DNA of 64,000 bases from positions 1,472,001-1,536,000 of the forward strand of contig CAWDTA010000002.1 in NCBI GenBank assembly GCA_963805085.1, read 5' to 3'. Every line of letters begins with the position of its first letter. Within the stretch, counting starts at the first letter, position 1. The position numbers and the translations under genes are program-made. Positions 546 to 59,823 of this stretch are shown here, one piece after another. Origin of the DNA: an uncultured Veillonellaceae bacterium. GTDB taxonomy: Bacteria > Bacillota > Negativicutes > JARBTT01. The notes below the pieces were generated by a model that searched no databases, was not told where the DNA came from, and was given only the letters and a program-made list of their open reading frames with translations.

Positions 546-635
546 TTAGGTTAGCACTTTTATGGTAAAAGCAATTAATGCTACTACCTTAACAAGTACC
601 ATTGGTTCGATCTGAAAATCAAAATGGAACTTCAT
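546..635 (-). CDS. 29-aa hydrophobic peptide, candidate type I toxin
   Basis: AGGAGGTG RBS; MKFHFDFQIEPMVLVKVVALIAFTIKVLT; opposing TTTACT-17-TATAAT promoter at 454-482; hairpin 661-688. Confidence 0.5.
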   Translation of the reverse strand: MKFHFDFQIEPMVLVKVVALIAFTIKVLT

Positions 636-814
636 AAGGTCACCTCCTTGTATTCAGTTTTAAGGACGTAGTTAGCGCTACGTCCTTAGTTATTATAACT
701 TAATATTACCAATTTTGATAACTTGAATTTCGGGCTGTTTTTTTTATGTCTCTTCTGATTTCATCTCTATGAATTGCTGATAAAACATTAATAAAGGCGA
801 ACACAAATACTGGT

Positions 815-970
815 AAATAGAATATAATCACTAAAAAGGAAACTCCTGCTGAATTCTGTATAAATTTGGCAGGAGTTTTGAGGTTTCATGAGAATATGTA
901 ATTTTAATACCAAAAAGCGATGGTAAGGTGACGGAAGAGGAACGTCCCTGAGTGTCCTCTGAGTGTCCGT
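815..970 (+). repeat. Dispersed repeat copy A (short form)
   Basis: aaatagaatataa...aactcctgctgaattctgtataaatttggcaggagtt...gagaatatgt...ggtgacggaagaggaacgtccc plus a tandem ctgagtgtcc tail. Confidence 0.95.
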
Positions 971-980
971 AAGATATACA

Positions 981-2348
981 TTAGAGTGATGGTTTCTCCG
1001 ATTTTACGGCACTTTTAACACCATAAGGATCAAAAATCCTAAATGGATCATAATTAGGCATTGCAAATTTAAGTGGATTCGTTTTACTATAATATAGCCA
1101 ATCTTCTTTGGTATTAATTGCTGCATAGTCTATAGATTCGTTCTGTGGTTGAGTGCTGATGGGGACAATATCACATTCATAAAACGTTGCATCCGTTCGT
1201 TTTAAAGTCAAATGTAAAATTGGCCGTTTCATATCCATTTTTATCATATCTTCAAATTCATATAAGTGCAGAGTGTTTGTTTGGATACCATTAATTGAAA
1301 TAATTTGATCACCTGGTTTTACAGCAATAAGTGTTGGTATTTGTTCTGTACTTACCTTCTGAACTGTAAATGGGCCTTTGCTCCAACTTTCATTTGCATC
1401 CAAATATTTTTTTCGAAGATTGAGTCCATAATCATTGAGTCCATAAAAACCTTCGTAGGTTTGATCAATGAGTTTTTTTGTATCTAATAAATATTTATCA
1501 AATTTATCTGGTTTTTTGTCATTAGATAATGTAAACGATAATGGTATATAGTCGGTGCCACTAGAAACGTACATACCAGTCCATGAATCTTTACGAGTAT
1601 GCTCATAGATTAGCCAAGCACGATAATTCAGCCAAGTACCTTCTGATGTTTCAATAAAATCACAGAAATTAAGCACGTCGCTGTCATCACCTCTAAAGCC
1701 AATAGACTTGTTTACATCATCTCTGGCATAACGATTATATCCGTAATAGCCACTCATTACTTTTTTTATGTCATAGTGATAGTTTAAATTATAGCAAAAA
1801 GCATCTTTTATCTGAGAGTATGTTTTGTTTGGAAAAAACAGTTGATAAGTCGGTATATCATAAGCAATGGCTGGATATGTATGCGCTTTTTCTACTGGAA
1901 TTTTCCCGATTTTAACAAATTCCTCTGGTATGATCCTACAGCGTGATTTTATATTTTTCTTGTCAGATATTTTTAATTCATATTCCAATTTCTGTTTTGA
2001 ATTTAGTCCCTGCCAATCAGATTCATTATAAACATACCATTTATCAATAGAGTTACTTGTCGTAGCGTTTTTTCTTAGAGCAGGATCTTTTATTTCTGTC
2101 AGTGGAATTTTCGTTGTTTTATCAACAATAATATTTGCTTCTAAGATATCTGGCACATTTTTATTAATGTGAAGTACTGTATAGTCTTTTTCTTTCGTGA
2201 AAACATGTTGAATTTCTAAGTAGTCGTCTTGAGTAAAATATACTGTTGTACCATTTGTTTGGTCTACCTTGTAAATTGTTGCTTGACAACTACCGATATT
2301 TACTAAGAAAAAAAACAAAATTATCAATAACTTGTGCATCCATGTCAT
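981..2348 (-). CDS. Secreted hypothetical protein with C-terminal PDZ-like domain
   Basis: Signal peptide; VKPGDQIISING PDZ motif; GAGGA RBS. Confidence 0.75.
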   Translation of the reverse strand: MTWMHKLLIILFFFLVNIGSCQATIYKVDQTNGTTVYFTQDDYLEIQHVFTKEKDYTVLHINKNVPDILEANIIVDKTTKIPLTEIKDPALRKNATTSNSIDKWYVYNESDWQGLNSKQKLEYELKISDKKNIKSRCRIIPEEFVKIGKIPVEKAHTYPAIAYDIPTYQLFFPNKTYSQIKDAFCYNLNYHYDIKKVMSGYYGYNRYARDDVNKSIGFRGDDSDVLNFCDFIETSEGTWLNYRAWLIYEHTRKDSWTGMYVSSGTDYIPLSFTLSNDKKPDKFDKYLLDTKKLIDQTYEGFYGLNDYGLNLRKKYLDANESWSKGPFTVQKVSTEQIPTLIAVKPGDQIISINGIQTNTLHLYEFEDMIKMDMKRPILHLTLKRTDATFYECDIVPISTQPQNESIDYAAINTKEDWLYYSKTNPLKFAMPNYDPFRIFDPYGVKSAVKSEKPSL

Positions 2349-2545
2349 GAAATTTTCCTCCTAAATTATGTTGTTATATTTTATCCTTGCTAATTGTAGC
2401 ATAATTTACCAATACTAAGCAATTTAGTTAAAAGAGATTTATAAAGCAATTAAGACGTTTTTGCAAATGCAGAACGGGCAATCAAGCTCCATCACGATAA
2501 AGAATTAGGTGCTTTTTCACCATTCTGCCGTTCCCTTGTCGCATG

Positions 2546-2761
2546 TAAAACACCAAAAAGGAAACTCCTGCTGAATTCTGTATGAATTTGGCAGGAGTTT
2601 TGAGCTTTTATGAGAATATGTAAATTTAATATCAAAAAGTTGATGGCAAGGTTGAGGCGGGCGAAGTGGCGGAGGTAGTGTCTTAGAGGAAAGCAATAAG
2701 ACGAAATCACCGTCCCCAGTCGTTCAAGAATAGTGGGACAGGGAACCTGTCCCCTTGTCCC
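2546..2761 (+). repeat. Dispersed repeat copy B (long form)
   Basis: Same core hairpin and promoter; ends gggacagggaacctgtccccttgtccc. Confidence 0.95.
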
Positions 2762-2890
2762 TATAGAAAAATTTTCTGAATTCATGAAAAGAATGACAGT
2801 AGGGACGTTTCTTTATTTTCAATATCATTACTGATTTCATATTTATGAACCTATAATAAACCATTGAAAAAGGTCTATAGGAATACCATT

Positions 2891-3037
2891 AAATAGAATA
2901 TAAACACTAAAAAGGAAACTCCTGCTGAATTCTGTATGAATTTGGCAGGAGTTTTGAGGTTTCATGAGAATATGTAGGTTTAGTATCAAAATGTCGATGG
3001 CAGGGTGACTGAAAATGAACGTCCATCGTTTGTCCGT
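2891..3037 (+). repeat. Dispersed repeat copy C (short form)
   Basis: Near-identical core to copy A. Confidence 0.95.
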
Positions 3038-3064
3038 AATAATTAATTATGGGGTGAGGGTATC

Positions 3065-3565
3065 ATGAAAGTATCATTAAGGGCATTAGCTATTGATGAT
3101 TTTCAAGTTTTAGAACAATGGTATGAACAAATTAACGGAGCAACATATACATCGCGATATGGGCCTAAAAAATTTAATGGAATTGATACAAGTATAAGTG
3201 AAAAATATACTTGGTATATTATCAAGGTTAATGAAATCGACTGTGGAGTAATATGGCTTGAAAAAGAAGAAAAGAATAATGATATAGCTATTCTTGGGAT
3301 AATGATAGGTAAAGAAGATTATTTTGGGAAAGGTATTGGAAAAGAAGCAATAAGTTTAGCTATTAATCAATCAAGGAAAGACCTTAAATTTAATAAAGTT
3401 TGCCTAAATGTGAGAAAAACAAATATTAGAGCAATCAGATGTTATACTAAGTATGGCTTTTGCATTAGTGGTGAAGGTGAAAAAATTGGCAGTGAAGAAC
3501 AGAAGATAGAATTTTTCAGTATGATTTTAGATGTAGAAAAAGTGCAGCGTGAAGTATTCTTTTGA
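3065..3565 (+). CDS. GNAT N-acetyltransferase (RimJ/RimL-like)
   Basis: GKGIGKEA acetyl-CoA motif A; NIRAIRCYTKYGF motif B. Confidence 0.9.
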   Translation: MKVSLRALAIDDFQVLEQWYEQINGATYTSRYGPKKFNGIDTSISEKYTWYIIKVNEIDCGVIWLEKEEKNNDIAILGIMIGKEDYFGKGIGKEAISLAINQSRKDLKFNKVCLNVRKTNIRAIRCYTKYGFCISGEGEKIGSEEQKIEFFSMILDVEKVQREVFF

Positions 3566-3584
3566 CTACACAATAATGCCGCTG

Positions 3585-3750
3585 AATAGAATATAAACAG
3601 TAAAGAGAAAGCTCCTGCTGAATTCTGTATGAATTTGGCAGGAGTTTTGAGCGTTTATGAGAATATGTAAATTTAATATCAAAAAGTTGATGGCAAGGTG
3701 ACGGAAAAGAAACGTCCCTGAGTGTCTCCTGAGTGTCTCTGATTGCCTCC
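3585..3750 (+). repeat. Dispersed repeat copy D (short form)
   Basis: Core hairpin; ends gaaacgtccctgagtgtctcctgagtgtctct. Confidence 0.95.
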
Positions 3751-3789
3751 AAAAATTAAAGCCCTGGGTGCAGTCAGAGAATAGGTGGG

Positions 3790-4296
3790 TTATTTCTTGA
3801 ATTCGATATTTTGCATGATGTAGGAGAATTCGGCAAGGGTGGTTTCGTACTGAGATTCTTTTGGCGCACTGAATAGAAAATAGCGAAAGTCGGCTCCGTC
3901 AATTGCAAGCATAGAATATATGCGCTTATCATTATTCGGATACATCACGACTGCAGTTAACCAAAAGGCTTGGTGATTATTCACTTGTAGATTTTTGCAA
4001 GTTCTAATTCGAGCGTTGAGGCTTGTGATGTAAGAGTTTTTGGTTTTGAGCAAACAGTCATCTAAACTACCTTCTTTGGGGATAACAGTCAAGTTTATAT
4101 CTGGTGATTTATGATTTTGCATAGTGAATAGGTAAAGAAAGCCCGTAGGAATATCATTTTTATAAGGAATAGCTTCTTGAGTGAACTCAATTTTTATAAA
4201 TTCGTCTTCGTATACCTTTATCTGCTGAGGCTCTGCAGCATACACTGATGTTACGGCAAACATTATTGATACGAGTGATAATAAGATTCGGTGCAT
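3790..4296 (-). CDS. Secreted hypothetical protein (possibly PsbP/DcrB-like fold)
   Basis: Start reassigned to ATG 4296 after AGGAGG; signal peptide MHRILLSLVSIMFAVTSVYA. Confidence 0.7.
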   Translation of the reverse strand: MHRILLSLVSIMFAVTSVYAAEPQQIKVYEDEFIKIEFTQEAIPYKNDIPTGFLYLFTMQNHKSPDINLTVIPKEGSLDDCLLKTKNSYITSLNARIRTCKNLQVNNHQAFWLTAVVMYPNNDKRIYSMLAIDGADFRYFLFSAPKESQYETTLAEFSYIMQNIEFKK

Positions 4297-4455
4297 TAGG
4301 GACCTCCTGTTTATTTCGCAATTTTGATACTGACAATAATCTTTTTCTATTATAAGGTAATTTAAGCGGGATGGGAAGGTATAAGAAGATAATGGCAAAG
4401 GAATAGAAAAAATGTCACTATCTGTAGGAGAATCGATAGTTAAGGGGGAGCATTA

Positions 4456-5019
4456 ATGCCAAGAATCTTTGGGGAAAGAATAATATTGCGAGAATATAAA
4501 AAAGAAGATTTGCTATATATGCGAAAATGGGTTAATGACCCAGAAATAGTAGATAATTTATCTGACGTATTTTTACATGCTAATACAATAAATGAAACGG
4601 AAAACTTTCTGAACAGTATACTTGAGGGGAAAAATAATCAACAAAAAAATTTTGTTATTGCTGATAAACAAACTGAAGAATATATTGGGCAAATTGATTT
4701 AATTAATATTGATTGGAAAAATCGTGTTGCTGAAATGGGTATCGTTATTGGCAATAAAGATTTACTAGGAAAAGGGATTGGAACAGAGGCTATCAAGTTA
4801 TTACAAGCTTTCGTTTTTGAGAGATTAAATATGAATCGGTTAGAATTAAATTTGCATGATTATAATGAAAGAGCTTATAAATGTTATTTGAAATGCGGCT
4901 TTGTGGAAGAAGGACGACTACGGAAAAAATTTTTTATTAATGGTCAATATACCGATGTTATTCTGATGGGAATACTTCGTGATGAGTATAATAGGGGGAG
5001 TAAAATATCAAGTATATGA
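4456..5019 (+). CDS. GNAT N-acetyltransferase (RimJ/RimL/SpeG-like)
   Basis: GKGIGTEA; NERAYKCYLKCGFVEEGRLR. Confidence 0.92.
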   Translation: MPRIFGERIILREYKKEDLLYMRKWVNDPEIVDNLSDVFLHANTINETENFLNSILEGKNNQQKNFVIADKQTEEYIGQIDLINIDWKNRVAEMGIVIGNKDLLGKGIGTEAIKLLQAFVFERLNMNRLELNLHDYNERAYKCYLKCGFVEEGRLRKKFFINGQYTDVILMGILRDEYNRGSKISSI

Positions 5020-5101
5020 TCAAAGAAGGCTTTAAAAGTATTGCAATAAGGCAATACTGGATAAAAAATTATAGACAAAAGTTTGAACAAATATTGACAA
5101 A

Positions 5102-5222
5102 TAAAATATAAACTCCTGCTGAATTCTGTATGAATTTGGCAGGAATTTTGAGCTTTCATGAGAATATGTAAGTTTACTAGTTGAAAAATTATGGTAAGTT
5201 GACGGAAAAGAAATCTTTCCGC
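5102..5222 (+). repeat. Dispersed repeat copy E
   Basis: aactcctgctgaattctgtatgaatttggcaggaattttgagctttcatgagaatatgt. Confidence 0.9.
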
Positions 5223-5245
5223 CTTCTATGGGGGAATAGAACTTT

Positions 5246-6451
5246 ATGAATAATATTAAGGCTGTATTTTTTGATTTTGATAATACAATAGTAGATTATG
5301 TAAAATCAGATATAGACAGTCTGAGGATGGTAGCAGAATCTTTGCCAATTACAGTAGACACAAATGTTTTCATTGACATTGCTGTTGAGCAAATTATGAA
5401 GTTTCATGGCTTGGTTAGTGATGGTAAAGTGGAGCCTAGTGATATACATAATTATCGTTTTTATAACACCATGAAGTATTTTTCTGTTGAATTGAAAACA
5501 AAATATTTAGATATTTATTTGCAACATTTCATAAAATCTACAATTTGTTTTTCGGGAGTAGAAGAAGTAATAAGATATTTGTATGGTAAGGTTAGATTGG
5601 GAATAGTAACCAATGCCTATAATTCGGAAGAACAAAAACGAAGAGTTGACAATACAGGGATAACAGGGTATTTTGATGATATTGTTGTATGTGCAGATAT
5701 CGGAGCCTATAAACCAACCAAAGAGGCATTTCTTTATTTGGTTGATAAGTACCGCTTGAAGCCGTTTGATTGTTTATATATTGGTGATTCGGAAGAATAT
5801 GATATAAAAGGGGCTAGAAATGCTGGTTTATATACAATAAAGATGGCTCATAATTCATCAAAAATAAATTCAGTAGCAGATTTTGTTTGTGATGATTTTC
5901 AGGATTTATTTAAATTATTCTTGGAAAAATTAGTGGTAAAGAATAATGTGGGAATTGATGGGGATATTTCCTACAAAGAATGTGCACAAGATGTAGCTCT
6001 TGCAGATGTAAGTAAACATACGATGCAGCTTATCTGGTTTCTGAATAATGATGATCGTTTACTTGATCATTTTGGTTCTAATAGCTCAGTTAAGATAACT
6101 GAACAAGAATTTTTAGAAACCAATAGAAAATGGATTGTCGAAAATTATGCGGATATGTTTGCTATCGTCTTAGGGAAAAAAGCAATAGGGATTATATCTT
6201 TAAGTCACAAGGATACTATCAACCATACAGCACGAATTGGTTATTGGCTCGGGAGTGCTTATTGGAATAAGGGATGCGGAAGTAGGGCTTTTAAACTTAT
6301 GCTTAGCGAAGCAAAGAATAGAGGCTTTAAATATGTATCTTCTACGATTAGAAAAGACAATGTAGCATCTATAAAGATATGGGACAAATATGGCGCACAA
6401 ATCATATCTAGTAATGGTAGATATTCGTGTGTTATCAACCTTGAAAATTAA
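5246..6451 (+). CDS. HAD-family hydrolase fused to a C-terminal GNAT domain
   Basis: FDFDNT motif I, KP, IGDSEEYDI motif IV; C-terminal IGYWLGSAYWNKGCG GNAT. Confidence 0.85.
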   Translation: MNNIKAVFFDFDNTIVDYVKSDIDSLRMVAESLPITVDTNVFIDIAVEQIMKFHGLVSDGKVEPSDIHNYRFYNTMKYFSVELKTKYLDIYLQHFIKSTICFSGVEEVIRYLYGKVRLGIVTNAYNSEEQKRRVDNTGITGYFDDIVVCADIGAYKPTKEAFLYLVDKYRLKPFDCLYIGDSEEYDIKGARNAGLYTIKMAHNSSKINSVADFVCDDFQDLFKLFLEKLVVKNNVGIDGDISYKECAQDVALADVSKHTMQLIWFLNNDDRLLDHFGSNSSVKITEQEFLETNRKWIVENYADMFAIVLGKKAIGIISLSHKDTINHTARIGYWLGSAYWNKGCGSRAFKLMLSEAKNRGFKYVSSTIRKDNVASIKIWDKYGAQIISSNGRYSCVINLEN

Positions 6452-6475
6452 ATATCGCAGTAGAAACTGTTATGT

Positions 6476-6500
6476 GAGTTCGAATTCCTCCGGGCGCACA
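6476..6500 (+). other. Degenerate tRNA 3'-end fragment (tRNA-Arg-like), possible att remnant
   Basis: gagttcgaattcctccgggcgcaca resembles T-arm plus acceptor GTTCGAATCC..CGGGCGC.CCA; no 5' half present. Confidence 0.5.
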
Positions 6501-6527
6501 AGCTAAATACAATAAAAGTAAGGCTTC

Positions 6528-6625
6528 AGAGTTCTGAGCCTTTATGAGAATATGTAGGTTTAGTATCAAAAAGTTGATGGTAGGGTGACGGAAAAGGAAC
6601 GTCCCCGACTGTCCGACTGTCGTCC
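6528..6625 (+). repeat. Dispersed repeat copy F (5'-truncated)
   Basis: tttatgagaatatgtaggtttagtatcaaaaagttgatggtagggtgacggaaaaggaacgtcccc plus tandem gactgtc. Confidence 0.9.
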
Positions 6626-6735
6626 TAAATTATATAGGACAAGTATTTCATTATTTTAGTTGCTTTTTTCTCACCTCAGAAAGTGTTTAATGGGTGGTGA
6701 TTACATGTTGCTTAGATTTTGACGTACTTCAAGAA

Positions 6736-6846
6736 ATGTTAATTATAGTTGAGAGTATCTTAGGAATAGCAAAGATTGCTTTAGAGATTTTTTTGGAATA
6801 CAAAGAAATTAAGAAATCTCGTACACGGAGAAAACATCATAATTGA
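6736..6846 (+). CDS. 36-aa membrane peptide, candidate type I toxin
   Basis: MLIIVESILGIAKIALEIFLEYKEIKKSRTRRKHHN, hydrophobic helix plus basic tail; terminator gagagccttagggctcttttttt follows. Start uncertain (in-frame GTG at 6694). Confidence 0.5.
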   Translation: MLIIVESILGIAKIALEIFLEYKEIKKSRTRRKHHN

Positions 6847-7024
6847 GAGCCTTAGGGCTCTTTTTTTCATGCCATAAATGAGGTGAGTAGATGATACTAA
6901 ATAAAGCGAGGTCAACGGACGTGAAAAATCTGGTGACCTCGCTTTTTCTATATCAAAATCATATTTCGATTTACTTTTACTTGCAATCTCTAAGAAACGT
7001 AATATAACTAGGAATAGGTGAAAA

Positions 7025-40423: not shown

Positions 40424-40520
40424 GTATAAAATTAAAAAAACCATGTTAAATTATGTATAACTTGGCAGGAATTTTAATTTTTGACTAGAATATGTAGGAC
40501 AGAAGGGACGTCAGACTGTC
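40424..40520 (+). repeat. Dispersed repeat copy G (diverged)
   Basis: aaattatgtataacttggcaggaattttaatttttgactagaatatgt keeps GCAGGA-17-GAAT. Confidence 0.75.
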
Positions 40521-40757: not shown

Positions 40758-42041
40758 ATGTTTGATAGATTCTGGAAAAAGACTACCGATATAACTAAAT
40801 TAGAATCATATAGAGCGAACTCACCGTGGAAGCACGATGCAGTTCTTTTGCATGTAACTAACAGACTTGGGCATTTACGTATGGCCTATGGAATGGCGAA
40901 AAATAATAAACAAAAATTCTTTATGCTATTAAAAGATATTCCGTTAGTGAAGTGGCATTGTATTGATGAATATAACTGCCCCACATGTGAAAAACTCATA
41001 TCCGCTGGTTATGGGTTAAATAACATAAATGAAGAGGTTATTAGTGAAATCAGAAGGTGCATGAACCAATCCCATGAAACGATTGATTTAGCAGTAGATA
41101 ATTTAGTACCTATACTAAAGCTTTTACCCAGTGGATATTATGTAGTAGCCGATTTACCTCTGTATCCGTCTGATGGAAATGGACAATTTTTTTGGAATCA
41201 AAGCAATCAACCAGCCTTTAATAAAGGAACCTGCTCAATTTATTATAAACAAATGTATTCGCAAGGGATGCCTACTTTTATCCTGCCAAGCCAACTGCCT
41301 GAAAGTTATGATGCAGCGACAATGAAGCGGTATCAGGAAATGTATCGAGCTGGGGAATCATTAAGAGGATTGGCTTATTATATGGGGGATTATCTCTGTA
41401 CCCTACTGGATGGGCATCATAAGGCAGTGGCAGCAGCTTTGGAAGGACGAGAATTTCGTTGTTTAACAATCTTGCCAGTACATGGTATTTCATGCTTGAA
41501 AGATGAAAAAGATTTTAAAATGTCAATTGGCGGTGAATGGATTGATTCAAAAAATCTTCCGACAAAATTTAATAAACACTTCAAGAAATCATATGGTCAA
41601 GCGAATAAATTAAAAACTGACGAAGTTGAAAAATATCTAACTATGGAAGCGGAATGTTGGGCGCAGTTTAAATGGCCACAAGAATTATTAGATATTGGGA
41701 AGCAATACCCCGACGCATTTACGGTGGCTTGTATAGAGTTTTCTGGAGATTTATCGGACGAACGTGTTTATAGACTTCTTCGGAATGAAGAAGCTGATGC
41801 CGAGGATAAACTAGAGTTTGTTTTTAAGTCTCTTGTTGGCTTAAAAGACATCCGGGCCGCAGAAATAGCAATGAAAATTGCCAAGGATGAAGGATTACGC
41901 AATCTATGGCAAGAGGTTTTTGAATATTTGGCTACTGTCCAAAGTGAACAAATAGAGGATTTCTTTATTGACTTTCTAGTTAATGATGAAAAACTGCGAC
42001 CGAAACTTACGAAAATAGCGGATAACTATTTAAAACACTAA
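40758..42041 (+). CDS. Hypothetical protein (CPTC and LLDGHHK motifs)
   Basis: 427-aa ORF; ParB/Srx-like DGHH motif; stop codon lies inside repeat copy H. Confidence 0.7.
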   Translation: MFDRFWKKTTDITKLESYRANSPWKHDAVLLHVTNRLGHLRMAYGMAKNNKQKFFMLLKDIPLVKWHCIDEYNCPTCEKLISAGYGLNNINEEVISEIRRCMNQSHETIDLAVDNLVPILKLLPSGYYVVADLPLYPSDGNGQFFWNQSNQPAFNKGTCSIYYKQMYSQGMPTFILPSQLPESYDAATMKRYQEMYRAGESLRGLAYYMGDYLCTLLDGHHKAVAAALEGREFRCLTILPVHGISCLKDEKDFKMSIGGEWIDSKNLPTKFNKHFKKSYGQANKLKTDEVEKYLTMEAECWAQFKWPQELLDIGKQYPDAFTVACIEFSGDLSDERVYRLLRNEEADAEDKLEFVFKSLVGLKDIRAAEIAMKIAKDEGLRNLWQEVFEYLATVQSEQIEDFFIDFLVNDEKLRPKLTKIADNYLKH

Positions 42042-42246
42042 AAAGGAAACTCCTGCTGAATTCTGTATGAATTTGGCAGGAGTTTTGAGCTTTTATGAGA
42101 ATATGTAAGTTTAATGTGAAAAAGTTGATGGCAAGGTTGAGGAAGGCGAAGTGGCGGAGGTATTGTCTTAGGAAAAAGCAACAAGACGAAATCACCGTCC
42201 ACAGTCGTTCGAAAATAGTGGGACAGGGAACCTGTCCCCTTGTCCC
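42031..42246 (+). repeat. Dispersed repeat copy H (long form)
   Basis: Near-identical to copy B. Confidence 0.95.
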
Positions 42247-42764: not shown

Positions 42765-44033
42765 TTACCCAGCAATTCTATCTGAAAATAAGATGTTTAA
42801 CTGGTCTAAAACCATATCCCAGTTTCGACATCTTTGCGTCCATCTTTCGACGATTTTCTTTGATGCCAAATATAATATTTTTCTTAAGCTATCGTCATTC
42901 GGAAACGATGGCTTATTTTTTGTTATTTGCCTAAACTGCCGATTCAGTCCTTCAATTATGTTAGTCGTATATATTATTCTTCGTATCTCTGGTGGATATG
43001 CATAAAACGCCGATAATATATCCCAATTTTCTTCCCAACTCTTTATGCACGATGGATACGCTTTTACCCATTTTTCTTTGAATTCCATTAGGTGATTTAA
43101 TGCTTCCTCTTCTGTTACAGATTGATACACTTGCTTTAAATCAACCATCAATTCTTTGATGTCTTTATAGCTTACATATCTTGTACTAGAACGTATTTGG
43201 TGGATAATACAGCGTTGTATTTGTGCTTTTGGATAGGTTGCATTAATTGCTTCTTTAAATCCTTTTAAACCATCTACGCAAAATAGATAAACATCAAGTA
43301 TACCGCGGCTTTTTAGGTCATTTAAGACACCTAGCCAAAACTTACTGCTTTCATGTTCACCTATCCAAATACCTAAAATATCTTTACTTCCATCTAGCGT
43401 AATACCAAGAACAACATAGGCAGCTTTTGTTACGATTTGGTGGTTTTCTTTAATTTTATAATGTATGGCATCCATGAAGATAAAGGGGTAAATTGCTTCA
43501 AGTGGTCTGGCTTGCCAAGCGTTTACATCCGGCATGATTTTTTCACTGATTTTACTTACAAGTTCAGGGGAAATTTCTACATCGTAGAGAATTTTAATTT
43601 GTTCAGCAATATCTCTTTGACTCATACCACAGGCATAAAGAGAGAGTATTTTTTCTTCCATTCCATCGGCATTACGATTGTATTTAGCAATGATTTGCGG
43701 TTCATATTCACCGTTGCGATCACGAGGAATCTTAACGTCGATTTCACCAAGCTGAGTTTTAACAGTCTTTTTAGAATAACCATTACGATAATTTTGTGAC
43801 TTTGATAAATCGACAGAATCGTCCAGATGTTTACTTTTTTCGTAACCAAGTTCTTGATCTAACTCAGATTCCATAACTTGCTGGATAACGTCTTTGAACA
43901 TATCTTTCATGGCTTGCATAATCTCAGTAGTAGAGGTGAAATTTTGGCTTTGTACATACTCTTTCATTAGATCTTTAGGTGCAGTTAACATAGAAAAAAA
44001 CTTCCTTCCAGGTTTGAATTTCTTATATTCCAA
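42765..44033 (-). CDS. IS256-family transposase
   Basis: RNGYSKK, PRDRNG, FMDAI, VDGLKGF, QRCIIH, YTTNIIEGLNRQFR; left IR GAGACTTCATAAAATTTTGTGTAAAA ends at 44088. Confidence 0.95.
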   Translation of the reverse strand: MEYKKFKPGRKFFSMLTAPKDLMKEYVQSQNFTSTTEIMQAMKDMFKDVIQQVMESELDQELGYEKSKHLDDSVDLSKSQNYRNGYSKKTVKTQLGEIDVKIPRDRNGEYEPQIIAKYNRNADGMEEKILSLYACGMSQRDIAEQIKILYDVEISPELVSKISEKIMPDVNAWQARPLEAIYPFIFMDAIHYKIKENHQIVTKAAYVVLGITLDGSKDILGIWIGEHESSKFWLGVLNDLKSRGILDVYLFCVDGLKGFKEAINATYPKAQIQRCIIHQIRSSTRYVSYKDIKELMVDLKQVYQSVTEEEALNHLMEFKEKWVKAYPSCIKSWEENWDILSAFYAYPPEIRRIIYTTNIIEGLNRQFRQITKNKPSFPNDDSLRKILYLASKKIVERWTQRCRNWDMVLDQLNILFSDRIAG

Positions 44034-44156
44034 TTCTTACCTATCGGGAAGTTTTTTATTCTTTTTACACAAAATTTTATGAAGTCTCATCTTTTTGTCA
44101 ATGGACATCTGATTTCCTCATTATGGATCGTTAATAAAGAATTAGTACCAATCGCT

Positions 44157-44255
44157 AAATAGAATATAAACAGTAAAAGGAAACTCCTACTGAATTCTGT
44201 ATGAATTTGGAAGGAGTTTCCTTTTATGAGAATATGTAAGTTTAGTATCAAAAAG
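44157..44255 (+). repeat. Dispersed repeat copy I (3'-truncated)
   Basis: aaatagaatataaacagtaaaaggaaactcctactgaattctgtatgaatttggaaggagtt. Confidence 0.9.
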
Positions 44256-44292
44256 AAACTTCTTATATAGCCTTTGAATTTTTCTTTTCCTC

Positions 44293-45108
44293 TCACTTCT
44301 GAGGATCTAATATCTCTCCATCATTATTAATTTTTACGCTTAACGGTTTTCTGAAATATACTCCACAGCCTGTTGGATCATAGACACCTCCCAGACGTTT
44401 CTTTTTATTGAGCTCTTTTTTGAAATCCTCTGATTTTGCTTCATCAATGATTCCTAATTCGATCACTTTACTTGTAACCAGATCAAATACTGATTGGCGG
44501 GCAATATTTGCACTGAGACTTGCCTTTTTATCTATATTCTCCGCACTTTCATAATAGCCATATCCTTCGGCTTCAATCTTCAAACCATCATCTTCTTGCA
44601 TTACTTTTTTGATTACTGCTGGTTTTTGCGGTATATTTTTCTCGATAAACGGATTGAACGCATTAACATCAATAGGTTTTTCACGGAAAGAAAAAAACCA
44701 CTGCGTATATTCTTTGCCTTTGCTTTTTACTGTTTCTTGTTTTTCTTCGATCATCTCTAATGGAATTGTCTCTGTAGAAACATAAAACATGGACGAATCC
44801 AGTCCCAATCGTGAATTATAGACCTTCGTATTATATTCTTTAGCTAATTTTAAACGAACCATATGCCGAGCAAAATCAATTAGCTTTTCATGTGACATGT
44901 TATTATTAAAGTTAACGCGAAAAAAATCTGCGGATGCGCTTTGTTTATAAACTTTTCCTTCCGTAACAAAAATTTCCTCAAACCTTTTTGCTTTGCTCCC
45001 ATCAGAATCCGGTAATGCAAAGGCATATACCGATGAAATAGCCACAAGTTGAATCATAGTAACCAAAATTGTAAGAAGAAATCTATTTCTAACAAAAAAA
45101 CTTCTCAT
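44293..45108 (-). CDS. Secreted hypothetical protein
   Basis: ATG 45108 after GGGGG RBS; signal peptide ending SSVYA. Confidence 0.7.
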   Translation of the reverse strand: MRSFFVRNRFLLTILVTMIQLVAISSVYAFALPDSDGSKAKRFEEIFVTEGKVYKQSASADFFRVNFNNNMSHEKLIDFARHMVRLKLAKEYNTKVYNSRLGLDSSMFYVSTETIPLEMIEEKQETVKSKGKEYTQWFFSFREKPIDVNAFNPFIEKNIPQKPAVIKKVMQEDDGLKIEAEGYGYYESAENIDKKASLSANIARQSVFDLVTSKVIELGIIDEAKSEDFKKELNKKKRLGGVYDPTGCGVYFRKPLSVKINNDGEILDPQK

Positions 45109-45339
45109 TATTAACCCCCATTTTATCATTATCAGTCTAAAAACTTCGCTATTAATATTAGAAAAACCTTTTATTGACAATAGAAATTAACTTTTTATCA
45201 ATGTTTTTTAATCAACAAAACAAAAAAATCTTTAGTAAAATCAGTGTTAGGTGGGATCGATGGTGGAGAAGTATAGTTGAGATTTGTGTTCTGCTAGTTC
45301 CAAGCTATGTGCGTTACTGAAATATAAGGCGATAAAGGT

Positions 45340-45553
45340 AAATGGAACATAAACACTAAAAAGGAAACTCCTGCTGAATTCTGTATGAATTTGGCGGGAA
45401 TTTTGAGGTTTTATAAGAATATGTAAATTTAATATTAAAAAGTTGATGGCAGGTTGAGGAGGGCGAAGTGGTGGAGGTAGCGTCTTAGGAAAAAGTAACA
45501 AGACGAAATCATCGTCACGGCCATTAAAAAATGGTGGGACAGGGAACCTGTCC
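45340..45553 (+). repeat. Dispersed repeat copy J (long form, REP end split by IS1182; remainder at 47216-47234)
   Basis: Core plus gggacagggaacctgtcc|IS|gaacctgtccccttgtccc. Confidence 0.93.
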
Positions 45554-47215
45554 GAAACCACTGAAAAATGACCATTTTTTAAGTCACTAGAATATTTTTA
45601 TATTTTATAATTCTTTGATGGACATTATTTTTCAAAATTCGGAGTAAATATTCGAAGAAAAAGGATACTAGAGCTGCTATCCTTTTCAAGTTCACTGCCA
45701 AAGCTGTAAGCTTGGCTTGCAGACTCATACTTTTTAGACCATACCCTCGGGCACGGTCTAATCCATGAAAGCGTTTCATTTCTCCATTTTTCCATTCATG
45801 GCTGGCACGTTTTTTATATTTTTCCTTAAATTCGGGTGTCTTTGCCCGTTGATTATGTTCATAATAGTCAGCTGTATTAATTCCAACATCTAAACGTTTT
45901 ACAGATGCTTTTTTGCCAGCACATTCTACTCTATTGGGACAATCTTTACACATAACCTTATTAAATTTATACTTTAGAATTTCTTGCCCCCAGCTACTTT
46001 TCCCATGTTTTTTTGTTATCGTATGATTTCCCATTATACAAAACCACTGATCACTATCCTTGTTATAACTGAATTTACTCTCGTCAATTTTGTATACTGA
46101 CGCACTTACGGGTATAATTGGCTCCACATTGTCTGCCTTTAAAATATCAAGTATCGGTTTACGAAAATACGCTTTGTCACCATAGGCTTCTTTTATATTA
46201 ATTCCACATTCTTTACTTCGATTATATAATTCGCCAAACTTATTTCCATCTACATAAGCACCATCACACGTTTCTATAGCCATAATAATACGTTCTTCTG
46301 GTATCATTGTAAATTCAACTTTATAACCATAAAAACTATCCGTTTTTGATTTATACCCTACACGAGCGTCTTTATCAACAAGTGAGCGTAAGCCTTTTTG
46401 TATGATAAACTTTTCATCGCTTAGTATCTCTTTTGCTTGGACTATCGCTTTTGAAGTTTTTGGCATGGTCGAGATATCAACGTTATTTTCGACTTCTGTC
46501 ATCATGCTTTCCAAAAAAGTTTTCATCATTTCCTTAGCTTCTTTATGATCCACTATTCCCTTATAATCGGGGATAGTGGTATTTATCTCAGGCGATATTT
46601 CTCCTGATTCTTCTTTTATATTTTTAAATATTTTCTTGGCCAAATGTTTCATAATCCGTTCTGGGACTAGCTTCATTGTATTGGCTTTTGCATGAGTGGC
46701 GTCAATTGTTAATCCTGTCCCTTTAATAAGGCCATTTTCGATACATTGGTGTACGACTTCCGTAATAATATTATCAACACTAGTATCTTTGAGTCGCTGT
46801 GTTCTGAATTTTGCAAGTAAGCTTGCATCAGGTAAATCTTCATCTGGGTTGATACCAATAAACCACATATATGCAAGATTCAAAGAGGCTTCTTCTATGA
46901 CTTTTACATCTGATAAATTATACAAATATTGCAATATGAGAAGTTTCGCCATCATTTCAGGTTCCTTTGCTGGACGACCAAAATGCTTGCTGTAGGAGCC
47001 TTCAAGTAATTTATTTATAAAACTGAAATCTACTACTTTATCTATGCTTTTAAGTAAGTGATCATCGGGTATTTTATCATATAAAATTGAATATAAACTT
47101 AATTGTTTCGATGTAGATTTAAGCATACTAAACCCCACTTTCTCAATATATACAATATCTTTATTATACCAAAAATGGGGTATATTTGATATAGTTTGAC
47201 TTTTTCAGTGGTTTC
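45554..47215 (-). mobile_element. Complete IS1182-family element
   Basis: IR gaaaccactgaaaaa/tttttcagtggtttc; TSD gaacctgtcc. Confidence 0.9.
45579..47138 (-). CDS. IS1182-family transposase
   Basis: GRPAKEPEMM, IDATH, GDKAY, CKDCPNRVEC, YKKRASHEWKNGEMKRFHGL. Confidence 0.9.
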   Translation of the reverse strand: MGFSMLKSTSKQLSLYSILYDKIPDDHLLKSIDKVVDFSFINKLLEGSYSKHFGRPAKEPEMMAKLLILQYLYNLSDVKVIEEASLNLAYMWFIGINPDEDLPDASLLAKFRTQRLKDTSVDNIITEVVHQCIENGLIKGTGLTIDATHAKANTMKLVPERIMKHLAKKIFKNIKEESGEISPEINTTIPDYKGIVDHKEAKEMMKTFLESMMTEVENNVDISTMPKTSKAIVQAKEILSDEKFIIQKGLRSLVDKDARVGYKSKTDSFYGYKVEFTMIPEERIIMAIETCDGAYVDGNKFGELYNRSKECGINIKEAYGDKAYFRKPILDILKADNVEPIIPVSASVYKIDESKFSYNKDSDQWFCIMGNHTITKKHGKSSWGQEILKYKFNKVMCKDCPNRVECAGKKASVKRLDVGINTADYYEHNQRAKTPEFKEKYKKRASHEWKNGEMKRFHGLDRARGYGLKSMSLQAKLTALAVNLKRIAALVSFFFEYLLRILKNNVHQRIIKYKNILVT

Positions 47216-54338: not shown

Positions 54339-54361
54339 ATAAAGAATACTGGCATTATCGT

Positions 54362-54538
54362 AAATAGAATATAAAAGTAAAAAGAAATTCATAATAAATT
54401 ATGTATAATTTAGCAGGAATTATAATATTTTACTAGAATATGTAAAATTAATATTAAAAGGATGACGGCAGATTGAGGAGGGCGAAGGCATTGTCTTAGA
54501 AAAAAGCCAACGAGACGAAGACAACGTCCCCTTATCAT
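54362..54538 (+). repeat. Dispersed repeat copy K (diverged), upstream of the bacimethrin genes
   Basis: aaatagaatataaa...gcaggaattataatattttactagaatatgt...ggcgaag...gtcttag...gacgaa...aacgtcccc. Confidence 0.85.
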
Positions 54539-54556: not shown

Positions 54557-54994
54557 ATGAAAAAAATTTTTTTAGCAGCTCCCTTTAAAAGTCTTGTAGA
54601 CGAAAAAAAGTCATTAATGTGTGAGAAATCAAAAATGCAAATCTTAAATTTAATTACATTCCTGGAAAGTAAAGGCTATAGTGTTCACAATGCTCATAAA
54701 CGAGAACATTGGGGGCTTGAATTTATGCCACCTGATCAATGCACTCAAATTGACTATAACGAAATTAATAAGTGTAATATTTTTATTGCGTTTCCCGGTA
54801 ATCCGCCTTCTCCTGGTACACATATTGAAATTGGATGGGCATCTGCATTTAACAAAAAAATCTTTATACTTCTTCACGGAGCAGAAGAAAATTATGCCTA
54901 TCTCATACGAGGATTACATACTGTTGCGGATGTAACTTATATTATCTATTCGGAAGAAAAGGAATATTATGAAGCACTTAACAGGTATTTGTAA
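54557..54994 (+). CDS. bcmB: Nucleoside 2-deoxyribosyltransferase-family hydrolase (hydroxymethyl-CMP hydrolase, BcmB-like)
   Basis: FLAAPF, SPGTHIEIGWA NDT motif; gene context. Confidence 0.75.
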   Translation: MKKIFLAAPFKSLVDEKKSLMCEKSKMQILNLITFLESKGYSVHNAHKREHWGLEFMPPDQCTQIDYNEINKCNIFIAFPGNPPSPGTHIEIGWASAFNKKIFILLHGAEENYAYLIRGLHTVADVTYIIYSEEKEYYEALNRYL

Positions 54995-55009
54995 TGTAGT
55001 TTTTGAGAG

Positions 55010-56005
55010 GTGATAAACATGAAGTTTTCCAGTTTTCAAGAAGCCTATTTGCATAATTTAAAAGATGTTTATTATTCTCCTCAATTTGTAAATATGCCAA
55101 GAGGAAATAAAAGCAAAGAAAGGCTGAATTTATCGTTTACTATTATTAATCCTATTGATAGGGTTTGCTATCTAAAATCAAGAAAAATCAATATTGTGTT
55201 CAACCTTGCAGAAGCATTATGGTATCTATCAGGTAGTAATGAACTTTCCTTTATTGAGTATTATGCCAAGAATATGCGGAAATACTCTGCGGATGGAATA
55301 ACTTTACAAGGCACAGCTTATGGTCCCCAAATTTTTGCATATGGCAATAATCATATCAATCAATGGGACAGGCTGATAAAACTATTTAGAGAAGATAAGG
55401 ATACCAAGAGAGCATTCATATCAATTTTTGATCCCAATGAAAATCTTTTCCTTGATAATATTGATGTTTCATGCACGATTGGATTACAGTTCTTTATCAG
55501 AAATAACTCATTGTATCTAACAACATTCATGAGAGCAAATGATGCTTACAGAGGTATGATAAGTGATGTGTTTTCGTTTACGTTCATTCAGGAAATGTTA
55601 GCAACTCAATTAAGCCTTAATGTAGGAGAATATTGCCATAATGTAGCCACTGTGCATATTTATGAGCCAGACAATGCCAAGGTAAAAAAAATAGTATCAC
55701 AAAAGATTGAAGAAAATGATAGATTAGTATTCCCATCCATGCCTCATAAAGATAATTGGGATAATGTTCAAATCGTTCTTTTATATGAAAAACAGTTAAG
55801 AGAGAATAAAATAGTTCTAGATGCCAAAACAATTGAAGATATTAAGGTTGATACATACTGGAAACAAATTATCATTTTATTTGCACTTTATCAAAAAATT
55901 TTATATGAAAATAAGATCGATATTTCTTTATTTTATAAATTAATACCATTATATCAATACTTAGTAAAGGTTAAATGGGAATATCTGTTTAAGAAAGAGA
56001 AGTGA
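55010..56005 (+). CDS. bcmA: Thymidylate-synthase-family CMP hydroxymethylase (BcmA-like)
   Basis: AYGP, DTKRA, DVSCT catalytic Cys, MRANDA, SDVFSF (Asp typical of cytosine-specific members), HIY. Confidence 0.8.
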   Translation: MINMKFSSFQEAYLHNLKDVYYSPQFVNMPRGNKSKERLNLSFTIINPIDRVCYLKSRKINIVFNLAEALWYLSGSNELSFIEYYAKNMRKYSADGITLQGTAYGPQIFAYGNNHINQWDRLIKLFREDKDTKRAFISIFDPNENLFLDNIDVSCTIGLQFFIRNNSLYLTTFMRANDAYRGMISDVFSFTFIQEMLATQLSLNVGEYCHNVATVHIYEPDNAKVKKIVSQKIEENDRLVFPSMPHKDNWDNVQIVLLYEKQLRENKIVLDAKTIEDIKVDTYWKQIIILFALYQKILYENKIDISLFYKLIPLYQYLVKVKWEYLFKKEK

Positions 56006-56769
56006 GAGATATGGGCACATCGTGGCATGATGAAAAAGTATCAAAAAATTTTAATGAATATAACGATATGTTGGAGGACGTATTGGGGTTCCACTACATT
56101 TTTCAATTTATACAAGATGAACCTAATGTAAGATCCATTTTAGATTTCGGATGTGGCCCTGGGAAAGTATCCGAAAGATTGGCGGAGTTTAATGATAAAT
56201 ATGATATTTTAGCTGTGGATCAATCTCAAAAGATGATTGATCTTGCATCAACTTTTAGGAAGCGAAAGAATATTCAATATCGTTTAATCGAAAATGATAA
56301 TTTGGGTTTTATTAAGTCAAATTCTATTGACTGCGCAATTATCTGTTTTGTTATAATAAATAATTCTGATTCCAATCGTATCTCCAACATTATAAACGAA
56401 GTTTATCGAGTACTTAGAAATAATGGTTTTTTGATCATATTAGACTCCAATCCAAATGCTGTTGGACTTGAATTCACCACATTTACTAATGGAGATAAAG
56501 GGAAAAATTACAAGATAGGAGGAAGCAAAAAGCAATATCTTAAAATACCAAATCAGACGGATTTAATCTTAAATGATTGGTATTGGACAAAAGATAATTA
56601 TTTAAGTTGGATAACTCAGATTGGTTTTAAATCCGTTAGTTTAATTGAACCAACAATAGATAATTTATCACAAGAAGATAGATTATTTTATGAAAGAAAA
56701 TATAATTTTAATAAGTGGGGAAATGAAAGGACTATTCCACCTTTTATTATTTTTAAATCCATAAAATAA
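56002..56769 (+). CDS. bcmC: SAM methyltransferase (BcmC-like)
   Basis: LDFGCGPG; gene context. Confidence 0.75.
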   Translation: MRDMGTSWHDEKVSKNFNEYNDMLEDVLGFHYIFQFIQDEPNVRSILDFGCGPGKVSERLAEFNDKYDILAVDQSQKMIDLASTFRKRKNIQYRLIENDNLGFIKSNSIDCAIICFVIINNSDSNRISNIINEVYRVLRNNGFLIILDSNPNAVGLEFTTFTNGDKGKNYKIGGSKKQYLKIPNQTDLILNDWYWTKDNYLSWITQIGFKSVSLIEPTIDNLSQEDRLFYERKYNFNKWGNERTIPPFIIFKSIK

Positions 56770-56864
56770 ACATAATACACTTATTCATTCTTTATAAAAA
56801 TAATTGAGGATTAAAAACAATTAATAATATATCAAGCCTATAAAAATAAGAGAGGAGAAAACAC

Positions 56865-58076
56865 ATGAAAAAAGCCAAACGAGTTTATGTGGCTTTGGCG
56901 GCTGTTGTTATGTTATTGTACTTACCAGTGAGTTTTGCCTATTCGGCAAATACTACAGAACAAAACCAAACGATTTTAAATGTTGCATTATATGGCTATG
57001 TTCCTGATGTTCAACGATTTAGAAACGCCGTGCAGACTTCTTGGAAACAAGTGGAACCGAATGTGGATTTAAATTTCGTGGATTGGGATTGTTATGAGAG
57101 TGACCCGACTCAGGACATAGATGTTTTTGTTTTTGATTCTATTTACCTGCAGCATTATGTTAACGAAGGATATTTGCTTCCAATTTCTGAAAATCAAATT
57201 AAAAATAAAGATGACCTGTTGGATTTTGCTTTATCAGGATGTACTATAAATAATACAATCTATGCGATACCTCAAATTATTTGTACAAATCTCTTATATT
57301 ATCGGAATGATGATAGTGAAATGGCACAAGTAGACACAGTAAATGAATTGTATCAGTTACTTGGGGATAGAAAATCTAATAGCATTATACCAGGTGAAAA
57401 TGAAGGATTAATGATTGATATGTCAGGTGGTACATCAAAAGTGTGTTTATACTTGGATGCACTCATAGACCAAACACAAACATATACAGATTATGCGCAA
57501 TTACCGCAAAGGTTTGATGAACATGTTGTATCTTACTTAAAAATGTTACAATCAATGGCTGGAACAGCACATGCCAATTACTATCCAGAAGACAATGATG
57601 CTTATATAAGAGCAAAATGGCTAGCGGAAGGCAAAGGCAGAGCCTATATTGGATATACCGAAGCAATGTCCAGCATGGGTGATTTTGCAAATAATGTTAA
57701 CTTCAAATTGATTTCGTACAGTCAATATAATAATATTCCATTGTTTTACGGTGATATTATTGGAATCAACTCTGATATCAATACGGATAAGGAAAATTTA
57801 GCAATAAAGTTGGTAAATGTCGTTGCATCTAGTGATACTATGATTGCATCAATTTCGTCTAATGCAGACAACTCTTATCCGCAGTATCTATTGCCTGCAA
57901 GATGCAGCGTTTATAAGGCAATGAGTAGCGATTATCCTATTTATAGAAAGCTCTATAAAATTGCAACTGATCTTAACAATAGGCTGTTTTTATTAGGATC
58001 AAATGCAGAAACATGGTTAACAGAAGTTAAAGGTACTTTGAGTGAGATGTTAAATGAAAATCCGGAAGCTGCATAA
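56865..58076 (+). CDS. bcmE: Thiaminase I (thiamine pyridinylase), secreted
   Basis: Signal peptide; VALYGYVPD, DVFVFDSIYL, YAIPQIICTNLLYYR (catalytic Cys), GYTEAMS (catalytic Glu), YPQYLLPAR. Confidence 0.88.
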   Translation: MKKAKRVYVALAAVVMLLYLPVSFAYSANTTEQNQTILNVALYGYVPDVQRFRNAVQTSWKQVEPNVDLNFVDWDCYESDPTQDIDVFVFDSIYLQHYVNEGYLLPISENQIKNKDDLLDFALSGCTINNTIYAIPQIICTNLLYYRNDDSEMAQVDTVNELYQLLGDRKSNSIIPGENEGLMIDMSGGTSKVCLYLDALIDQTQTYTDYAQLPQRFDEHVVSYLKMLQSMAGTAHANYYPEDNDAYIRAKWLAEGKGRAYIGYTEAMSSMGDFANNVNFKLISYSQYNNIPLFYGDIIGINSDINTDKENLAIKLVNVVASSDTMIASISSNADNSYPQYLLPARCSVYKAMSSDYPIYRKLYKIATDLNNRLFLLGSNAETWLTEVKGTLSEMLNENPEAA

Positions 58077-58147
58077 ATTTAGCACAGCTACTTATAACTA
58101 AAATATTATTTAAACTCTTTAAAATAATATGGTGGTTTTATATTAAA

Positions 58148-58226: not shown

Positions 58227-58297
58227 TTTCTTACGCTGTATTGCGTTTGAAAGAGCTTCCAAATTGGAAGTTCAATTTTTTTTTAGGAGGAAAGACA

Positions 58298-59821: not shown

Positions 59822-59823
59822 CG

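Follow-up and report, generated by a model that had tools for sequence, protein, structure and literature searches.

A repeated intergenic module with a hairpin, a predicted SigH-type promoter and REP-like tails in a Veillonellaceae genome

We describe a short intergenic repeat found in a stretch of 64,000 nucleotides (hereafter the window; C2:1472001-1536000, where C stands for contig) from the genome of an uncultured Veillonellaceae bacterium (labelled G000; 4.2 Mb, 37% G+C, 5 contigs, 83% complete). Our analysis favours, with a probability of roughly 0.55, a reading in which the repeat would be a composite and reusable intergenic module, built from a terminator hairpin, a SigH-type promoter and a leader followed by a tail of the repetitive extragenic palindrome (REP) type. 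Within this unit, no other single reading explains the conserved right half as well as a promoter does, and no sigma factor fits it better than SigH, a prediction that is well supported, if unproven. We regard the putative terminator hairpin and the REP tail as parts of the unit that are equally real as the promoter.

Results

A SigH-type motif recurs in one family of repeats

The motif GCAGGA-N17-GAAT has nine exact matches in the window, on the + strand only, against 0.14 expected from 100 dinucleotide shuffles of the same DNA (the highest shuffle gave 1 match and none gave 9). Eight of them, at 869, 2591, 2945, 3638, 5139, 40465, 42076 and 54413, are held by a single repeat family (copies A, B, C, D, E, G, H and K), the first one (869-895) reading GCAGGAGTTTTGAGGTTTCATGAGAAT. 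The ninth, at 19313, lies within a polyketide synthase (PKS) open reading frame (ORF) of 4953 aa and is a chance occurrence unrelated to the repeat. An earlier note on this DNA had reported the motif in copies A, B, C, D, E and H and also in the diverged copies G and K, which this count bears out; it had also placed the -35 element inside the right arm of the hairpin, where it is indeed found in copy A (Table 1). The window holds 11 copies of the repeat, + strand throughout, with GAATATGTA boxes at 892, 2614, 2968, 3661, 5162, 6548, 40488, 42099, 44230, 45417 and 54436, and the exact motif is missing from three of them (boxes 6548, 44230 and 45417). The spacing is N17 in all eight matches of the repeat, and the -35 element reads GCAGGA(G/A)TT in 8 of the 11 copies, the full SigH -35 consensus being RNAGGAWWW.

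The same motif is available from the same bacterial class. The SigH motif published for Sporomusa sphaeroides KIAC from differential RNA sequencing (dRNA-seq) consists of a -35 AGGA and a -10 GAAT separated by a spacer of 17-18 nt, and is assigned to 322 of 2,158 start sites (PMC12456013). The genome studied here encodes sigH (C4:119561-120157; TIGR02859, 376.1 bits for a cut-off of 294.8), and with the Sporomusa motif this agrees with the sigma-H assignment made in the earlier note. The transition-phase timing proposed there is doubtful, since it extrapolates from Bacillus, and in Sporomusa the SigH motif is reported at 16% of start sites in growing cultures, with SigH active during growth on H2/CO2 (PMC12456013). 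No spo0A match above cut-off was obtained in the 83%-complete assembly. Every property of a SigH promoter that can be checked at the level of sequence is present in the predicted module.

Anatomy of the unit

Alignment of the copies yielded the anatomy of the unit. An A-rich upstream piece (TAAATAGAATATAAACACTAAAAAGG, module U) is followed by a hairpin of 18 pairs, AAACTCCTGCTGAATTC-TGTAT-GAATTTGGCAGGAGTTT, and 3' of it by a T-rich spacer and the -10 box GAGAATATGTA. Then come a conserved leader of 35 nt, with GGT(T)GA as its last bases, and a tail, of which there are at least three kinds. The canonical hairpin (copy C) folds with -25.8 kcal/mol on the + strand (z -6.55) and with -19.2 kcal/mol on the - strand, the + strand being the more stable because of two G.U pairs; it is likely an intrinsic terminator, as predicted from this fold, and possibly a bidirectional one. 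The leader of the same copy has no stable fold (z +0.95), and the long tail of copy B folds with -44.6 kcal/mol (z -3.0). No Rfam family covers the repeat: only an FMN riboswitch scored above gathering and nothing meaningful appeared at E values up to 5. A coding leader peptide was ruled out, as the copies carry 1-nt indels between them, and so was a miniature inverted-repeat element with two REP ends, the inverted partner being present at one array copy only (C). A second GAATA box, also conserved, is found in module U about 20 nt 5' of the hairpin (ATAGAATATAAAC here, AATCGAATAGAAG in another family), with no AGGA at a fitting distance; a box similar to it (AATCGAATAGAAGTAA) also stands 5' of the hairpin in another family.

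The mechanism that we propose would run as follows. Transcription entering from the upstream side would end at the 18-bp hairpin, which, flanked by A-rich sequence 5' and U-rich sequence 3', would serve as an intrinsic terminator. The descending arm of the hairpin and conserved loop-proximal bases (TGTATKAATTTGGCAGGAGTTT) would jointly form the -35 region for SigH, with the -10 GAAT 17-18 nt further on. The SigH transcript would then cross the 35-nt leader and the REP-like tail into downstream DNA, where it would meet a sense gene in about 60% of the copies and, in the others, an inverted gene at its 3' end or an insertion sequence (IS) that arrived later. The module would have increased in copy number in a plasticity region that abounds in GNATs, methyltransferases and IS elements and has a CAT-family gene and a PKS cluster. 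In this scheme we infer the start by SigH-RNA polymerase, the termination at the hairpin and the mode of spread.

The predicted promoter block persists where the hairpin is lost

A profile made from 19 copies was run on the genome and gave 69 hits, 67 of them non-overlapping. GAAT is found in 51 of these 67 copies. The hairpin is kept in 49 and absent from 18, and 14 of the latter retain GAAT. In several of the hairpin-less copies (at least seven) homology begins at one common position in the loop, (T)GTATGAATTTGG. Conservation in the 36 most diverged copies reaches 80-90% in the right arm and loop, compared with 50-80% in the left arm. About 14 conserved bases stand 5' of AGGA (TGTATKAATTTGG), which the SigH motif as published does not mention. 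Within the window, the hairpin is gone from copies G and K (40465 and 54413; fold z -0.44 and -1.12), which retain both GCAGGA and GAAT; being 84% identical across 63 nt, they represent a single diverged lineage and not two independent cases.

The block is also found in relatives. BLAST with one copy gave matches in 23 of 61 related genomes, its own included. Thirty non-identical hairpins from these loci, oriented by their loop sequence alone, showed GAA[T/A] 16-18 nt after AGGA in 19 of 30 cases in the forward direction versus 1 of 30 in reverse. Of 301 genomes sampled in the class, 49 match a pattern made of right arm and loop only (TGTATKAATTTGGCAGGAGTT, no more than 2 mismatches), and a reversed control pattern gave 2 hits. 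The hits are concentrated in a few large-genome families (18/20 genomes in f25, 11/15 in f6 and 4/4 in f10, compared with 0/66 in f12, 1/62 in f17 and 0/45 in f24). From about 150 listed pattern places we hand-picked 40 sites, 1 to 4 per genome in 23 genomes, excluding G000, its relatives G001 and G004, and previously sampled places. GAAW stands at N16-18 in 21 of the 40 (N17 in 16, N18 in 5), as GAAT in 12. Eleven sites are hairpin-less, that is, have no left arm and a fold weaker than -12.5 kcal/mol, and GAAW is retained in nine of them. Other genomes carry arrays of 9-10 copies within 34-63 kb, and in arrays of another family a hairpin is likewise followed by a short conserved leader and by REP-type tails that vary. 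The block is present in Sporomusa sp. and Pelosinus sp. records of metagenome-assembled genomes. A scan of the whole collection with an arms-only pattern was too loose (122 loci in many phyla, a real block in only 5) and was discarded. Our literature search found no description of this repeat.

Evidence against the promoter reading and selection on the hairpin

Several results weigh against the reading proposed above. In 7 of the 49 hairpin-bearing copies pairing is kept by compensatory changes that destroy AGGA (to AGTT, AGTA, AGGC or AGGT), with stem pairs such as CACCTGC/GCAGGTG, CAACTGC/GCAGTTG, CTACTGC/GCAGTAG and, in three cases, GCCTGC/GCAGGC. In relatives, GAAW at N16-18 is missing from 19 of the 40 hand-picked sites, 8 of which read CAAA or CAAT, and only 12 of the 29 hairpin-bearing sites have it. 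A ten-copy array in the genome G216 carries GCAAAT at the position of GAAT, which implies that a SigH -10 is not universal in the hairpin family. The bare AGGA-N17-GAAT occurs 218 times genome-wide versus 129-191 times at other spacings, and most of these are chance matches. The sigH gene is present in 294 of the 301 class genomes; near-universal as it is, it cannot explain the patchy distribution of the block and does not discriminate. A sigma-70 scan lists all five copies in 600-7000 at 9/12. For the terminator part, a U-tract rule (5 T in 8) is passed by only one of the five hairpins in the same interval (copy B, terminator-like), as some of the T run is taken up by stem pairing. Finally, the closest ORF on the downstream side (from crude calls, 70 aa or longer) lies on the same strand in 41 of 67 copies, and within 400 nt in 33 copies versus 22 with an opposite one.

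The hairpin itself is, judging by its substitutions, under selection. In a set of 105 hairpins from many genomes, 10 of the 14 predicted pairs show at least one double (compensatory) change; variation of the right arm is suppressed in this set because it was collected with a right-arm pattern. The earlier note's view that selection preserves the promoter and lets the hairpin drift is supported in its first half, as the block is kept without the hairpin in 9 of 11 relatives' sites and in 14 of 18 copies here, but not in its second, since the hairpin is kept in 49 of 67 copies and compensated in 7.

These observations bear on another explanation, in which function resides in the hairpin, as the terminator or RNA-stabilising 3' structure of a REP-like element that spreads, and the GAAT box is a passive passenger devoid of promoter activity. 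The seven compensated copies that override AGGA, the scarcity of GAAW at the hairpin-bearing sites and the background-like orientation of downstream genes (see below) all speak for it. So do a BLAST match of the hairpin part (query 30-90) in distant families and a hairpin-only copy (C2:1583165) between two genes conserved in G000 and G004, at a place where G004 has another element of 300 nt with its own terminator. We nevertheless consider it unlikely. The persistence of loop, right arm and GAAW in copies without a left arm cannot be explained by a function in termination only, and both the 19 to 1 bias of GAAW for the forward direction and the better conservation of the right arm over the left argue for a promoter.

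Orientation and neighbouring genes

The 67 copies are distributed over three contigs: 55 in C2 (all +, 1.38-1.66 Mb), 8 in C5 (all +) and 4 in C4 (all -). The cumulative GC-skew of C2 has its minimum near 0.8 Mb, so that + is the leading strand at the C2 copies. The module always points the same way as replication (67/67, by contig).

The genes among the copies encode GNATs, methyltransferases, a CAT-family protein, DJ-1/PfpI, AraC, LysR and PadR regulators and hydrolases, and the plasticity region that holds the copies also contains IS elements and a PKS cluster. Transposase genes of the IS110, Mutator and DDE types lie among the copies, several of them inverted directly 3' of one; besides the Mutator and DDE genes of Table 1, this is the case of an IS110 gene at C2:1470945-1472147. 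The repeat or its tail may be a preferred target for IS insertion.

The earlier note had suggested that each copy may switch on its downstream cassette, and the data speak otherwise: in the same region 64% of ORFs (68/107) are on the + strand, so the 41 of 67 co-oriented downstream ORFs match the background. Copies are thus not specifically placed before genes and their orientation is set by something else. If the promoters work as predicted, about four in ten copies would transcribe into an IS or yield antisense RNA. On the upstream side, 50 of 67 copies have an ORF of the same strand (background 64-73%), a weak enrichment that fits a role as terminator. A rule by which the first copy of an array lacks the hairpin is true for two small arrays and fails for the large one.

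Copy K speaks for the promoter reading, as it is the sole conserved element in the divergent intergenic region that precedes a long + strand operon (54557-61426). This operon has nucleoside deoxyribosyltransferase-like, thymidylate-synthase-like, methyltransferase, thiaminase I, TenA, ThiD, permease and truncated TMP-synthase genes, and its Pfam domains are consistent with a bacimethrin-type antivitamin cluster.

The tails match the flanks of RAYT-like genes

Twenty-four Y1_Tnp matches were found in the genome, corresponding to five identical IS200-type genes of 164 aa and about 17 genes of 250-300 aa. Three representatives of the latter scored 73.9, 75.6 and 84.5 bits on NF047646, the model for REP-associated tyrosine transposases (RAYTs), whose cut-off is 80. 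The flanks of the RAYT-like genes are the tails of the repeat, with three tail types for three gene groups (Table 1). On C2, Y1 genes are on the - strand to the left of the skew minimum and on the + strand to its right, and the repeat follows the same rule. None of the 16 genes inspected has the hairpin at its ends, and the hairpin lacks a GTAG or CGTC tag. By their sequence, the tails are of the REP/RAYT type and the hairpin-promoter part is not. The CGTC tag marks one REP superfamily, whose members are said to have no dedicated transposase (PMC3733652).

The RAYT-like genes themselves (about 17, outside the window: C2:1948687, 1951335, 2044231, 548640, 538112 and others) have at least five types of flank, with inverted CGTC-containing repeats at both sides, and all are co-oriented with replication. 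In a relative (locus L013, G027:C1:3545201-3548255, - strand), a unit of hairpin, promoter and REP tail abuts a RAYT-like transposase gene that lacks its first ~60 codons; the unit has apparently taken the place of this missing 5' part.

Close relatives differ at the borders of the module

Units differ among relatives at their borders. G001, of the same genus, shares with G000 one copy and both of its flanks, and G000 has 2,067 extra bases there, with AraC-type and SDR genes. The difference begins exactly after the GTTGA of the leader and its other end lies in unique DNA, so that one end only is in the module. In G004, a canonical hairpin copy precedes the counterpart (91% identical) of the gene that follows copy G, and homology between G000 and G004 in this gene region begins right after the tail.

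Could the hairpin be a single-stranded DNA site for recombination or transposition, cut by an HUH (RAYT-like) or unknown enzyme and giving rise to integron-like arrays of promoter-bearing cassettes? The strict co-orientation with replication, obeyed on C2 by the 24 Y1_Tnp hits too, would be expected on this explanation, as would the divergence of gene content exactly after the module in G000, G001 and G004 and the 9-10-copy arrays of other genomes. The loop and inner stem are conserved in sequence and the outer stem covaries, at least seven hairpin-less copies begin at the same loop position, and tails of three RAYT types follow one junction. Yet no inspected RAYT-like gene is flanked by the hairpin, no tyrosine-recombinase (Phage_integrase) domain was seen among 100 ORFs scanned in 124 kb, and the sole clean indel has one end only in the module. 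Moreover, gene-strand bias and tandem growth could also yield co-orientation, and the 'arrays' cover 280 kb with ordinary genes included. We consider this possibility improbable, to the same degree as a hairpin with a passive GAAT box.

Other sigma factors

A housekeeping SigA promoter (-35 TTGGCA, an 18-nt spacer and -10 GAGAAT) would account for the scores of 9/12 in the sigma-70 scan, and we judge it quite doubtful. The SigA promoters described in Sporomusa are TTGHHW / TATAAT (PMC12456013). Relatives mostly read GGGAAT, GGGAAA or CGGAAA, with no A at the second -10 position, and 9/12 is reached by 38 matches in 6.4 kb, where 29.9 are expected. A sigma-54 promoter (TGGCAGG-N4-TTGNN, for a consensus TGGCACG-N4-TTGCW) is hardly credible, for although the spacing and the -24 TGGCA fit and TTGC exists in a few copies (C2:1459781, L020), the -12 C is mostly missing (TTGA here, TTGT in most relatives, TTGC in ~2/30 by eye) and no enhancer-binding-protein context was seen.

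Features of the window

The coordinates of the copies and of their parts are collected in Table 1. The interval 2762-2886 between copies B and C is gene-free. Apart from the long tail and the inverted REP partner of copy C, the 354 bp that look empty there have only 33 nt.

Table 1. Copies of the repeat in the window, parts of copy A, and tail types. Positions refer to the window unless a contig is given.
Feature	Position	Strand	Remarks
Module block			TGTATKAATTTGGCAGGAG
Copy A, motif match	869-895	+	parts listed in the rows below
Copy A, upstream module U	811-836	+	TAAATAGAATATAATCACTAAAAAGG; A-rich, second GAATAT box; repeat family D15
Copy A, hairpin	840-878	+	left arm 840-856, loop ~857-861, right arm 862-878, T-rich sequence after
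Copy A, predicted -35 GCAGGA	869-874	+	AGGA 871-874; inside hairpin right arm
Copy A, predicted -10 GAAT	892-895	+	17 nt after AGGA; predicted start ~901-904
Copy A, conserved leader	896-929	+	ATGTAATTTTAATACCAAAAAGCGATGGTAAGGT; repeat families D1, D6
Copy A, REP-like tail	930-968	+	GACGGAAGAGGAACGTCCCTGAGTGTCC, TGAGTGTCC repeated; CGTC-tagged; same sequence type 3' of RAYT-like stop codons
Copy B (with long tail)	2533-2761	+	end GGGACAGGGAACCTGTCCCCTTGTCCC; no gene between B and copy C; repeat families D9, D14, D19
Copy C, inverted REP partner	~2793-2806		GACAGTAGGGACG; 5' of copy C; reverse match at C2:1474802
Copy C	2887-3035	+	then GNAT gene 3065-3565 (+)
Copy D	3580-3735	+	next ORF on opposite strand (3790-4398); GNAT gene 4456-5019 (+) beyond
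Copy E	5104-5232	+	then HAD-GNAT fusion gene 5246-6451 (+)
Copy F (box 6548)	6529-6625	+	only -10 box, leader and REP tail; without hairpin, without -35
Copy G	40434-40520	+	hairpin lost, GCAGGA-N17-GAAT retained; GGACAGAAGGGACG (inverted REP type) directly 3'; 5' of a small ORF and a 427-aa gene (40758-42041)
Copy H (with long tail)	42018-42246	+	then inverted Mutator-family transposase gene 42765-44033
Copy I (box 44230)	44153-44258	+	hairpin, GAAGGA, shortened spacer; leader ends after CAAAAAG; next ORF inverted (44293-45180)
Copy J (box 45417; with long tail)	45336-45553	+	GCGGGA instead of GCAGGA; TAAGAAT at -10; then inverted DDE transposase gene 45579-47138
Copy K	54355-54530	+	hairpin lost, motif retained; in divergent intergenic region before bacimethrin-like operon (54557 onward, +)
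Short tail	C2:1948687, 1951335, 2044231		CGAAAAAGGAACGTCCCC then tandem TAGTGTCC; flank of these Y1_Tnp genes
Long tail end	C2:548640		GGGACAG..CCTGTCCCCTTGTCCC; flank of RAYT-like genes such as this one
Tail of C4 copies			..GAACCGTCACCTTGTC; flank of a RAYT-like gene group

Two further features were noticed in the window. A hydrophobic ORF of 29 aa at 546-635 (-; MKFHFDFQIEPMVLVKVVALIAFTIKVLT) has a strong Shine-Dalgarno sequence and a hairpin nearby (660-689). The block of ~290 nt around it (453-744) shares 88% identity with an intergenic element that lies at another locus in G004, and by its sequence resembles a small-membrane-peptide or type I toxin-antitoxin-like unit that would move between sites. 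The FMN riboswitch (62407-62534; 117 bits, gathering 66.2) lies 5' of a gene for the S component of an ECF transporter (62631-63245).

Discussion

If the module works as we read it, one control signal would be common to GNATs, methyltransferases, a chloramphenicol-acetyltransferase-like gene and a bacimethrin-like operon, and it would enlarge the SigH regulon, which is already unusually wide in Sporomusa. It would also connect the delivery of promoters in diderm Firmicutes with REP/RAYT elements, which have mostly been studied in Proteobacteria until now. As a terminator followed by a promoter, the unit would amount to a compact insulated promoter and is a candidate genetic part for acetogens.

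Candidates for its spread are homologous exchange among copies, as in the PeSL cassettes of phages, single-strand transposition by Y1 enzymes, or an unknown recombinase. A bolder proposal, which we put forward tentatively and think rather unlikely, if somewhat less so than the two main alternatives above, is that of an undescribed mobile unit of spore-forming, large-genome Negativicutes made of a hairpin read as single-stranded DNA, a SigH promoter and a REP 'handle'. RAYT-like HUH enzymes would copy it during replication, thereby laying integron-like accessory arrays with their own stop and start signals.

Several known systems share part of these features. The SigH promoters of S. sphaeroides KIAC (PMC12456013) belong to the same class of bacteria and have AGGA, GAAT and a 17-18 nt spacer as here, where sigH is also encoded; in our case, by contrast with the promoters as published, the motif is part of a repeat with many copies and has its -35 inside an arm of the putative terminator, conserved bases stand 5' of AGGA, and the use of SigH is predicted.

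Integron attC arrays come to mind because co-oriented hairpin repeats are found here between mostly single accessory genes (GNATs, CAT). The differences are that the hairpin is conserved in sequence across families, has no GTTRRRY core, and comes with its own promoter in each unit, and that ordinary genes and multi-gene stretches stand between copies. No Phage_integrase domain was detected in 100 ORFs of C2:1412001-1536000, two PKS ORFs being left unscanned and the rest of the genome not searched for IntI. Correia elements of Neisseria are promoter-carrying miniature elements and, like our repeat, short dispersed sequences able to supply promoters or terminators to their neighbours. Unlike them, our unit has no terminal inverted repeats around its whole length and no target duplication was seen, both REP ends being present at copy C only.

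The tails recall REP and REPIN sequences with their RAYTs in being short, CGTC-tagged, palindromic or inverted, extragenic and multi-copy, in lying mostly 3' of genes and in flanking RAYT-like genes (PMC3733652). The host is here a Negativicute, whereas the REP families described are mainly proteobacterial, and a promoter within the unit is not among the REP features described.

The closest arrangement is that of the PeSL cassettes of T4-type phages, which join a stem-loop terminator to a promoter between variable accessory genes of hyperplastic regions, and where, as here, the gene content of close relatives differs at the repeats (PMC4122927). Our module differs in its bacterial chromosomal location, its predicted alternative-sigma promoter, its REP tails, its strict co-orientation with replication and an indel that ended in the module at one side. 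If our reading is true, it would be the counterpart of the PeSL cassettes on a bacterial chromosome.

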